44,317 nt of DNA from an uncultured Candidatus Saccharibacteria bacterium. Lineage in GTDB: Bacteria; Patescibacteriota; Saccharimonadia; UBA4664; CAYXHD01. This document shows, piece after piece, positions 38,826 to 39,239 of the stretch. The number at the start of each line of letters is the position of its first letter. Position 1 is the first letter of the stretch. The notes under the pieces were generated by a model. That model had not been told where the DNA came from, did no database searches, and saw only the letters and a program-made list of their open reading frames with translations. Where the stretch lies: contig CAZPDI010000003.1 of NCBI GenBank assembly GCA_964585425.1, positions 1 to 44,317 on the forward strand, given 5' to 3'. Position numbers and translations under genes: made by a program.

Positions 38826-38893
38826 GAGACTGATTTCTGCATAAAATGCTTATGCTTGCTGTTCGGTTTTTGTTCGTATAACATGTAACTAGT

Positions 38894-38981
38894 GGGCGTG
38901 TGGCGGAATTGGTAGACGCGCTCAACTACCACTTGAGTATTACATTGTAATGTGTGGGTTCGAGTCCCATCATGCTCACCA
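38894..38981 (+). tRNA. type II (long variable arm) tRNA with Leu-type D-arm, A73 and encoded CCA, but anticodon ACC
   Basis: Hand-folded cloverleaf. Acceptor GGGCGTG/CATGCTC has 2 G-U pairs. The D-arm TGGCGGAATTGGTAGACGCG is identical to E. coli tRNA-Leu as I remember it. The anticodon stem is CTCAA/TTGAG with loop CTACCAC (anticodon at 38928..38930). The variable arm is ATTAC-ATT-GTAAT. The T-arm is GTGGG-TTCGAGT-CCCAT. Confidence 0.7.
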
Positions 38982-38996
38982 ATGCATCATGGTACT

Positions 38997-39022
38997 AAAA
39001 AGGACGCGTTCGCGTCCTTTTT
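38997..39022. terminator. bidirectional intrinsic terminator
   Basis: AAAAAGGACGCGTTCGCGTCCTTTTT is a near-perfect palindrome with A- and T-runs. Confidence 0.8.
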
Positions 39023-39028
39023 AGATCT

Positions 39029-39043
39029 ACTCAACTACCACTT
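39029..39043 (+). repeat. exact 15-nt copy of the tRNA anticodon arm (CTCAACTACCACTTG)
   Basis: Identical to 38921..38935. Weaker similarity extends about 12 nt upstream (TT..TAGA....). Confidence 0.85.
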
Positions 39044-39097
39044 GTGATAATAAGTATACTTTAATGGCTCTGTTTAATCAATGCAAAGTCAATTCAA

Positions 39098-39174
<77 letters not shown>

Positions 39175-39239
39175 GCAGCGGTACCTCAAGAGTATATCAA
39201 TAGCTATGCGCTTATGCCAAACTTCGGTACACTAGTAAG

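Follow-up and report, generated by a model that had tools for sequence, protein, structure and literature searches.

In SOS-induced type I toxin–antitoxin loci of Escherichia coli, such as tisB/istR-1 and the further pairs symE/symR and dinQ/agrB, the effector is the mRNA of a small membrane or nuclease protein. In the type VIII toxin–antitoxin systems (CreT/CreA, SdsR/RyeA) both partners are RNA, CreT impairing translation through sequestration of a rare tRNA and CreA working through Cascade on the promoter, and in T-boxes a specifier made of a codon and a conserved purine reads the anticodon of a tRNA next to a terminator. Among tRNAs that join the body of one amino acid to the anticodon of another, the tRNAProX family (tRNAProA/N/T) of Streptomyces and Kitasatospora has been described as a set of natural bacterial dual-identity tRNAs, for which encoded mistranslation has been proposed (PMC11415595), and the nev-tRNAs of nematodes, class II molecules whose anticodons are Gly(CCC) or Ile(UAU), accept leucine in vitro (PMC4300185). 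The present analysis concerns a tRNA gene in a stretch of 44,317 nucleotides (contig CAZPDI010000003.1 of assembly GCA_964585425.1, positions 1 to 44,317; hereafter the window) from an uncultured Candidatus Saccharibacteria bacterium. The gene (38894..38981, plus strand) has a leucine-type class II body and the anticodon ACC, carries a LexA-type box in its promoter, and is faced by a predicted small RNA gene complementary to its own anticodon arm.

The window is contig C3 of a genome (G000) of 776 kb in 71 contigs with 49% GC, which was compared with two further species of the same genus (G001 and G002); completeness is 98% for G000 and 81% for G001. ARAGORN called 39 tRNAs over the whole of G000, namely four of the odd kind described here and 35 ordinary ones, the latter including tRNA-Leu (CAG, UAG, CAA), tRNA-Gly (GCC, UCC, CCC) and tRNA-Asp (GUC). 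A preliminary description of the window gene as an 88-nt class II tRNA with an ACC anticodon, A73 and an encoded CCA was borne out by ARAGORN, by Rfam (49.9 bits with RF00005, whose gathering score is 29) and by the sequence and its alignment, which also provide the A15:U48 and G18G19 of a Leu-type body. The anticodon, which reads GGU, lies at 38928..38930 (plus strand; placed by ARAGORN at tRNA position 35) within the loop CTACCAC (38926-38932). The arms are a 7-bp acceptor stem, a Leu-type D-arm, a 5-bp anticodon stem (CTCAA/TTGAG) closing a 7-nt loop, a long variable arm with a 5-bp stem (ATTAC/GTAAT) and a canonical T-arm. Positions 7-28 of the tRNA (22 nt, GTGGCGGAATTGGTAGACGCGC) are identical to those of the organism's own tRNA-Leu(CAA) on contig C31. 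For the identity with the D-arm of E. coli tRNA-Leu suggested in the preliminary description, blastn against E. coli genomes returned no match at E≤0.01.

The window gene belongs to a family. A covariance model was built from the four odd tRNAs called by ARAGORN in G000 (C3:38894 and C8:4852, both ACC; C5:4844, AUC; C10:14774, GUC) and was used alongside a family-derived pattern, which matched four loci in G000, five in G001, four in G002 and none in the 398 other genomes of the class, the reversed-pattern control also giving none. Beyond the genus the best matches of the model were ordinary tRNA-Leu genes (loci examined: one in each of 27 genomes and seven further ones in G003 and G056). In the alignment of the 13 full-length members 99.0% of the cells fall in standard pairs and 17 of 24 pairs have changed on both sides, values equalled in none of 500 shuffles; when the 3′ partner is slid along, pairing falls to about 40%. 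Covariation extends to all five pairs of the anticodon stem, all four of the variable-arm stem and the 7-bp acceptor stem, the first two stems being hypervariable to the point of differing in almost every paralogue. The anticodon loop follows YU-RYC-AM in every member, with U33, C36 and A37 invariant, as are A73, A14, A15, G18, G19 and U48, and the canonical core (U8, A14, G18G19, U33, the T-loop GTTCRA, C61 and the 3′ CCA) is invariant or nearly so throughout. Only four anticodons are found: ACC (seven members), GUC (three), GCC (two) and AUC (one). Judged from this alignment, the family tRNAs are genuine and under structural selection.

These data contradict the first of three options raised in the preliminary description, namely a tRNA-Leu whose anticodon arm had been replaced by recombination to leave a pseudo-tRNA: the full-length relatives in three species, with their paired and compensated stems, and the invariant U33, C36 and A37 all speak against it. 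The window gene lies above the Rfam threshold, with a covarying cloverleaf, and relatives in all three species share the architecture and carry non-Leu anticodons. Two further copies in G000 are incomplete. A GUC copy is truncated by the end of contig C37, and at C2:8763-8990 (L292) the tRNA has been deleted between two short CGCCCA repeats, the LexA-type promoter, the start of the leader, the trailer, the terminator, the arm copy (TACCAAACTAG...) and the antisense promoter being retained; toxin–antitoxin loci are known to decay by such loss of the effector.

The identity of these tRNAs is divided. The set of elements that confers leucine identity in E. coli comprises A73, A15:U48, G18G19 in a Leu-type D-loop and the tertiary pairs between D- and T-arms, anticodon and variable arm being dispensable for leucyl-tRNA synthetase (LeuRS) (PMC9976931). 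By sequence, this set is present in 13/13 members, and a leucine anticodon (NAG or YAA, with A35) is absent from the family, so that its members are not classed as tRNA-Leu isoacceptors. They match tRNA-Gly and tRNA-Asp in the anticodon and depart from them in all 13 cases by a class II body with A73 in place of a class I body with U73 (Gly) or G73 (Asp), and naming such genes ‘tRNA-Gly’ or ‘tRNA-Asp’ by the anticodon, as annotation pipelines do, is misleading. A body of one amino acid combined with the anticodon of another, which defines dual-identity tRNAs, is thus found in all three species. A single match above cut-off to the LeuRS-specific domain indicates one LeuRS in G000, the same search revealing no second paralogue above cut-off. 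Since no TadA-type deaminase domain was found in G000 and no tRNA-Arg(ACG) occurs among the called tRNAs, A34 is probably unmodified.

The same features bear on the idea that the genes are harmless additional Gly and Asp tRNAs, correctly charged by GlyRS and AspRS, which would boost decoding during the damage response. The codons concerned are indeed very frequent (GGU, GGC, GAU and GAC make up 11.4% of codons in long open reading frames of G000), and the anticodon is a major determinant for both GlyRS (C35, C36) and AspRS (G34, U35, C36). However, every member has A73 together with the class II body, G2:C71 and a Leu-type D-loop, the eight A34 versions (ACC in seven, AUC in one) lack G34, and the genome already holds tRNA-Gly with GCC, UCC and CCC and tRNA-Asp with GUC; a neutralizing antisense RNA for each copy, as predicted below, would also be hard to justify for a harmless tRNA. 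Such a role is considered improbable.

The promoter of the window tRNA (38856..38882, plus strand) consists of a −35-like TTGCTG (38856-38861), an operator (38861-38876) and a −10 element TATAAC (38877-38882). The arrangement is kept in 13/13 loci, with the consensus GCTTG..GTTCGnnTTTTGTTCG followed by the −10 element; a simple sigma-70 scan did not call it, the −35 element being weak. The operator is a LexA-type box, GTTCGGTTTTTGTTCG (38861..38876), recognized by motif matches as a GTTC-N7-GTTC direct repeat between −35 and −10. Exact GTTCG..TTTTGTTC sites number 11 in G000, and six of them are loci of the tRNA family (four intact, the truncated one and the decayed one). Of the other five, one lies on C12 and four precede, respectively, a RadA-like gene, a gene for an LTD (lamin-tail-domain) protein, an unknown 319-aa open reading frame and an operon encoding 23S-rRNA-IVP, a Y-family polymerase (IMS) and NrdR; one-mismatch variants lie upstream of recA and comM. 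The box precedes 4/4 odd tRNAs of G000 versus 0/35 ordinary ones. It is also present in the lexA promoters of G002 and of G003, where LexA was identified by the Pfam domains LexA_DNA_bind and Peptidase_S24, and in other Patescibacteria upstream of at least three recA and at least three lexA genes, a Y-family polymerase gene and comM. The GTTC-N7-GTTC repeat is the published LexA motif of Alphaproteobacteria (PMC8565304), and the LexA of Patescibacteria has been cited as a direct-repeat binder (PMC7739468, citing Sanchez-Osuna 2017). Because the promoter spacer is such a box, the tRNA is expected to be silent under normal conditions and induced by DNA damage. A metagenome scan anchored on the box and the type-A leader gave no matches.

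Downstream of the tRNA, a bidirectional intrinsic terminator (38997..39022) is formed by A5, the stem GGACGC, the loop GTTC, the stem GCGTCC and T5. The hairpin, which a simple terminator scan missed, was recognized from sequence and fold; it has a folding energy of −15 kcal/mol on the minus-strand RNA, and its stem shows compensatory substitutions among paralogues. The 15-mer CTCAACTACCACTTG of the anticodon arm (38921..38935) recurs beyond it at 39030..39044, starting 7 nt past the T-run, and none of 100 dinucleotide shuffles of the window gave two matches; the recurrence had been noticed in the preliminary description, which placed the second copy one base too low, at 39029..39043. Read on the minus strand, the copy (CAAGUGGUAGUUGAG, 39030..39044) is the perfect complement of tRNA positions 28-42, that is of the 5′ stem strand, the loop and the start of the 3′ strand. 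A sigma-70-like promoter found by promoter scan on the same strand (39053..39081), with TTGATT (39081-39076), a 17-nt spacer and TATACT (39058-39053), would give rise to an RNA of about 51 nt (38997..39047, minus strand; fold prediction, with the 5′ end taken from the promoter) having an unpaired 5′ region of 25 nt followed by the hairpin and a U-run. The duplicate is thus predicted to be the seed of a convergent antisense RNA gene of about 50 nt.

The same organization recurs across the family. In 13/13 loci the terminator is followed by a copy of part of the tRNA of that locus, always with the anticodon in it. Where the leader is short, the copied stretch comprises the 5′ stem strand and the loop (positions ~25-42); in most other loci, the six long-leader ones all among them, it comprises the loop, the 3′ stem strand and the variable arm (~33-59). 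In G000 such a downstream copy accompanies 4/4 odd versus 0/35 ordinary tRNAs. In all 13 loci the −10 element of the best-scoring minus-strand promoter candidate ends 4-8 nt ahead of the first base of complementarity. Nine of these candidates score at least 9.5, as do 1% of 5000 random 57-nt windows; at L031 inspection by eye reveals a better one. The antisense promoter carries no LexA box. Calculated duplex energies average −30.6 kcal/mol for cognate versus −16.5 kcal/mol for non-cognate combinations, the cognate partner being the best in 12/13 cases, and the seed of the window reaches −28.3 kcal/mol with its own tRNA versus at most −15.3 kcal/mol with the other three odd tRNAs of G000. In the probable orthologues C8 and L034, stem and variable arm of the tRNA differ, with parallel differences between the copies at three or more places. 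RNase III is encoded in G000. Small open reading frames in leaders and trailers were considered as products of these loci and rejected, their frames differing from locus to locus, with no consistent start and no conservation.

A side observation concerns the sequence just beyond the antisense promoter, where an ordinary tRNA-Met(CAT) gene lies on the minus strand (39098-39174, 74.4 bits) with a promoter of its own, TTGGCA-18-TATACT (39220..39191). It sits upstream of the antisense-RNA promoter, and read-through from it would cross the seed and end at the shared terminator.

Rather than a gene, the 15-mer could be a functionless leftover of recombination, the scar of a duplication or integration beside a decaying tRNA-Leu copy, in line with another option of the preliminary description, the remnant of an att site used by an integrase that targets the anticodon loop. 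In favour of this, the copy forms a direct repeat near the gene, some copies have mismatches without clear wobble bias, and two ordinary tRNAs of G000 do carry direct repeats of their 3′ ends within 200 nt that resemble att scars (19 nt or 18 nt; tRNA-Gly(GCC) at C1:208-283 and tRNA-Asp(GUC) at C8:16497-16574). In the odd loci, in contrast, the repeat comprises the anticodon or variable arm only (positions 28-42 in the window tRNA), lies about 95 nt away and never includes the tRNA 3′ end; the similarity stops sharply at the conserved promoter; and no integrase is found nearby, the neighbours of the window tRNA encoding DsbB, a DsbA-like protein, DivIC and a DUF2207 protein. The 13 loci of the three species share one architecture, and the arm repeated in each is that of the locus itself and differs from the others; the cloverleaf is strongly compensated; and other phyla have the repeat in inverted form, with a promoter and terminator of its own. 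On this evidence the window tRNA is not a pseudogene, nor is the locus the scar of an integration event; the scar explanation is already largely refuted, and we regard it as highly improbable. Of the three options, we favour the remaining one, a deliberately mis-pairing or recoding tRNA, on sequence grounds. The preliminary interpretation was to that extent supported, the gene family, the LexA-type box and the convergent promoter, which turns the duplicate into a candidate antisense RNA gene, having been beyond its view.

A further element was revealed by the family comparison in the 3′ trailer. In the window, GGTA (38991..38994, plus strand), that is the cognate codon GGU followed by A, is complementary to U33-A34-C35-C36 and lies 2 nt before the A-run of the terminator. 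The tetranucleotide follows the anticodon (GGTA with ACC, GGCA with GCC, GACA with GUC, GATA with AUC) and lies 0-3 nt before the A-run. Over G000, G001, G002 and a metagenomic member (L316) it fits the locus's own anticodon in 13/14 cases, versus 0/42 for any of the other anticodon classes, the exception being L038 with GGTC. In most long-leader loci it falls within an extended terminator palindrome, which is not the case in short-leader loci such as that of the window. Through this element the tRNA may be able to act on the terminator of its own gene. At the locus Rfam gave no T-box match (RF00230), and neither a Stem I nor an antiterminator or T-box sequence is present. The idea that the odd tRNAs act as decoys on T-boxes of glyQS and aspS was rejected, the only T-box-like match in G000 preceding ileS: this sub-threshold element (L285, C7:11021-11179, minus strand; 32 bits, E 6.7e-6) is found immediately upstream of that gene and resembles the ileS T-boxes of Actinobacteria.

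Genomes of 185,579 species were scanned with Leu-type D-arm and T-arm anchors, the anticodon being left free except for the exclusion of A35. Of the 83 matches 76 were unique, 69 having a proper anticodon stem and 47 of these also an acceptor stem of at least 6 bp and A73, so that Leu-bodied tRNAs with non-Leu anticodons are widespread. The anticodons are diverse (UUA, CGC, GGC, GGA, UGG, GCG and others), and the restriction to RYC is therefore peculiar to the Saccharibacteria genus. At nine loci, six in Gemmatimonadota (L202, L247, L264, L240, L219, L229) and one each in Longimicrobiales (L276), Planctomycetaceae (L252) and Chitinophagaceae (L190), a TTGACN-17/18-TAnnnT promoter, the reverse complement of the locus's own anticodon arm and a terminator follow in tandem on the same strand, 40-70 nt downstream of the tRNA; metagenomes added at least eight more tandem and at least two convergent loci. 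Since the same antisense logic occurs in two gene orders, the RNA–RNA pairing itself is likely to be the selected feature, and the pairing of tRNA and antisense RNA looks functional. In Acidobacteriota, Leu-bodied tRNAs with UGC or UGG were found (L246, L266, L281).

Several of the loci in other taxa are of interest in their own right. In an AT-rich metagenomic organism (L366), a Leu-bodied tRNA(GGA) has a convergent arm copy past a bidirectional terminator, as in Saccharibacteria, and a Cheo-type LexA box, CGAATATATGTTCG, upstream. Twelve alphaproteobacterial loci (L209, L214, L216, L234, L238, L241, L248, L257, L258, L279, L282, L283) encode Leu-bodied tRNAs with a perfect acceptor stem, an encoded ACCA in most and the anticodons UUA, UGA, UGU, AGA or UCC, followed after about 25 nt by a conserved open reading frame of about 118 aa whose product is coiled-coil-like at the N-terminus and has a C-terminal ...SRLKxDGA..Y motif; TTGATA-type palindromes lie upstream of several of them. 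These loci of a tRNA and a small protein form a different and apparently undescribed module. In 12 loci from metagenome-assembled genomes of Gammaproteobacteria/Pseudomonadales (L203, L206, L208, L212, L220, L222, L228, L251, L255, L256, L272, L275) the Leu-bodied tRNAs have a constant anticodon stem GGGGA/TCCCC, variable arms of 32-35 nt and the anticodons CGC, GGC, GGA, GCC or CAC, with a hairpin before and a conserved sequence of about 60 nt after the gene, and with at least one tandem array. Upstream of the Leu-bodied tRNA(UGG) of L235 and L245, a hairpin whose loop GTTGGAT copies the anticodon loop, with different stems, looks like a mimic of the anticodon stem-loop.

The wide reuse of Leu-tRNA frames also gives some weight to the view that the odd tRNAs are tRNA-shaped regulatory RNAs that do not decode: the Leu body would be merely a stable scaffold, RNase P- and CCA-processed, that presents a variable module of anticodon and variable arm for pairing with other RNAs, the small RNA would act as its sponge, and no misincorporation would occur. 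Consistent with such a role, 14/22 unique Leu-frame matches in viral contigs lack a proper anticodon stem, acceptor stems are degenerate in several bacterial matches (e.g. L181, L204, L269), the hypervariable parts of the family are exactly those matched by the partner RNA, and the anti-anticodon element of the trailer suggests RNA–RNA or attenuator-type contacts of the anticodon off the ribosome. However, the features needed for charging and decoding (acceptor stem, A73, CCA, U33, 7-nt loop, purine 37 and 5-bp stem) are kept in 13/13 family members, and a pure pairing module would not need an anticodon limited to four triplets and two amino acids next to freely varying stems. A non-decoding regulator is, on balance, rather unlikely.

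The explanation favoured here, to which we give an even chance, is that the family consists of damage-induced, leucine-charged tRNAs reading Gly and Asp codons and held in check by cognate anti-anticodon small RNAs. The LexA-type operator would keep the tRNA gene silent until DNA damage relieves repression and the tRNA accumulates, to be processed through its canonical leader, CCA and trailer. Because bacterial LeuRS ignores the anticodon, the tRNA would be leucylated and insert leucine at GGU and GGC (Gly) or GAU and GAC (Asp) codons. The small RNA would be made from its box-free promoter, and so perhaps constitutively, and its 5′ end would bind the anticodon loop and one stem strand, or the variable arm, of its own tRNA. 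Such pairing would mask the anticodon, open the stem and block decoding, possibly also supplying a substrate for RNase III, so that basal tRNA would be neutralized and the tRNA would act only once its induction outruns the small RNA. The hypervariable arms would keep the four to five pairs of a cell orthogonal. As outcomes, growth arrest, persistence, abortive infection, survival of damage or the production of beneficial ‘statistical’ proteins may be envisaged. Mistranslation and the SOS response have been linked in E. coli, where global mistranslation is reported to help cells to survive DNA damage (PMC7082066), and the SOS-induced TisB causes persistence in the same organism (PMC2826370).

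Several observations weigh against this explanation. With respect to repression, lexA was found neither in G000 nor in G001, which may reflect an assembly gap or a true loss. The search in G000 comprised Pfam LexA_DNA_bind and Peptidase_S24, tblastn with two Saccharibacteria LexA proteins, and blastn and tblastx of the lexA neighbourhood of G002; nothing in G000 corresponds to the 3.35-kb lexA region of G002, whose flanking genes (VanW-like and SH3-like) are uninformative as to gap or loss, so that control by LexA in G000 itself is a presumption. Nor does the SOS link appear to be general across taxa, Cheo-type, GTTC-N7-GTTC and CTGT-N8-ACAG boxes not being enriched upstream of 166 unique odd-tRNA loci elsewhere relative to downstream controls. 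The genes under the box are not poor in the codons concerned: GGY accounts for 0.69 of their Gly codons versus 0.77 genome-wide and GGY plus GAY for 10.1% versus 11.4% of codons, which is no meaningful depletion, and codon avoidance by box-controlled genes was rejected as a candidate feature. With respect to the tRNA, the minimum free energy fold of the window sequence taken singly does not contain the cloverleaf (z = −0.9), leucine charging is extrapolated from the rules of E. coli, and the codon-plus-A element of the trailer is unexplained by a model of miscoding and antidote. As for the small RNA, three of the 13 antisense promoters are weak (5.5, 6.5 and 7.5); wobble-compatible changes are not over-represented among the mismatches between copy and tRNA (about six compatible versus about five incompatible transitions by hand count); and the metagenomic member L316 has a copy with 16/21 identities and no clear antisense promoter. 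In the other taxa, simple alignment within 300-400 nt detected a partner for 15/83 genomic matches, several of which are tandem tRNA copies, and for 12/85 among the metagenomic matches listed. Finally, the public sequence runs that cover the locus include four labelled as RNA, all consisting of contigs with patchy coverage and two of them ‘probably DNA’, which are uninformative on transcription, ends and strand; the runs containing the window stretch are mostly wastewater metagenomes.

Two features of the general tRNA complement of G000 may be added. No Cys, Asn, Leu(UAA) or Ser(GGA) tRNAs are among the 39 called, probably because the assembly is divided into 71 contigs, and a 74-nt tRNA-like gene at C14:3916-3989 (minus strand), which ARAGORN could not assign, has a Met-like body with a 6-nt anticodon loop, TCATCA, and may be a defective or unusual tRNA.

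Taken further, the data lead us to propose, tentatively and with less than even confidence, a new class of all-RNA switch or toxin–antitoxin module, in which a leucine-charged tRNA that has a foreign anticodon and misreads abundant sense codons is the effector and a small RNA against its anticodon arm the antidote. In the Saccharibacteria genus four to five orthogonal pairs per cell would be wired to the SOS response, and the codon-plus-A element next to the shared terminator may serve the tRNA in sensing its transcript. Related pairs with other anticodons (Arg, Ala, Ser, Asp, Gly, Pro) occur in Gemmatimonadota, Planctomycetota, Bacteroidota and metagenomes, and tRNA-borne, regulated mistranslation would then be a widespread strategy of stress response or defence. 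If this holds, the family would be the first of tRNA genes known to us under SOS (LexA-type) control, its partners the first small RNAs with a tRNA anticodon arm as dedicated target, and the whole the first toxin–antitoxin-like module with a miscoding tRNA as effector. Whether cells raise mistranslation on purpose under stress, a long-standing question, would become directly testable, the device being encoded, inducible and titratable and not a by-product of damaged synthetases, and the 13 naturally orthogonal tRNA/anti-tRNA pairs would provide parts for switchable codon reassignment. In the literature no description was found of LexA-controlled tRNAs, of small RNAs antisense to a tRNA anticodon arm or of bacterial Leu-bodied tRNAs with non-Leu anticodons, and the Rfam searches gave no description of the module either.

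In none of the closest known systems does a tRNA act as effector under a LexA-type operator together with an anti-anticodon RNA dedicated to it; we regard the module as new, its mechanism being deduced by us from the comparisons made here. With tisB/istR-1 it shares the box in the effector promoter, and with SOS type I toxin–antitoxin systems the occurrence of multiple paralogous, mutually specific pairs. The small RNA predicted here from a promoter-like element, a seed and a terminator in 13/13 loci would correspond to the adjacent antisense RNA with its own promoter, which there neutralizes basal expression. As expected of an SOS operator of that type, the box lies between −35 and −10 in 13/13 loci, LexA binding being a prediction; the difference is that the target of the antisense RNA is the anticodon arm of a tRNA and no protein is made. 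Type VIII systems resemble it in that both partners are RNA; they differ in having a toxin other than a tRNA, and LexA control is not known for them. The likeness to T-boxes resides in the cognate codon and A directly before the terminator, covarying with the anticodon in 13/14 loci, here without the Stem I, antiterminator and T-box sequence. With att sites in tRNA genes, the loci have in common a downstream direct repeat of part of the gene, which in att sites reaches the tRNA 3′ end and brackets an integrase element.

The dual-identity tRNAs come closest with respect to the effector. Like the family described here, tRNAProX is a conserved bacterial family with the body of one amino acid and the anticodons of others, including A34 forms (AGC, AUU, AGU). 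It comes with a dedicated ProRSx paralogue, whereas a single LeuRS was found in G000. Its body is a class I proline body, and the text available of its description mentions neither a LexA box nor a cognate antisense RNA (PMC11415595). The nev-tRNAs share the Leu-type body with a long variable arm and the Gly anticodon, the anticodon blindness of LeuRS being the proposed basis; they differ as eukaryotic nuclear genes with other anticodons, for which the accessible account describes no damage-responsive promoter or partner RNA (PMC4300185). If the explanation favoured here is correct, natural dual-identity tRNAs, as represented by tRNAProX and the nev-tRNAs, would extend to leucine bodies and to many bacterial phyla.

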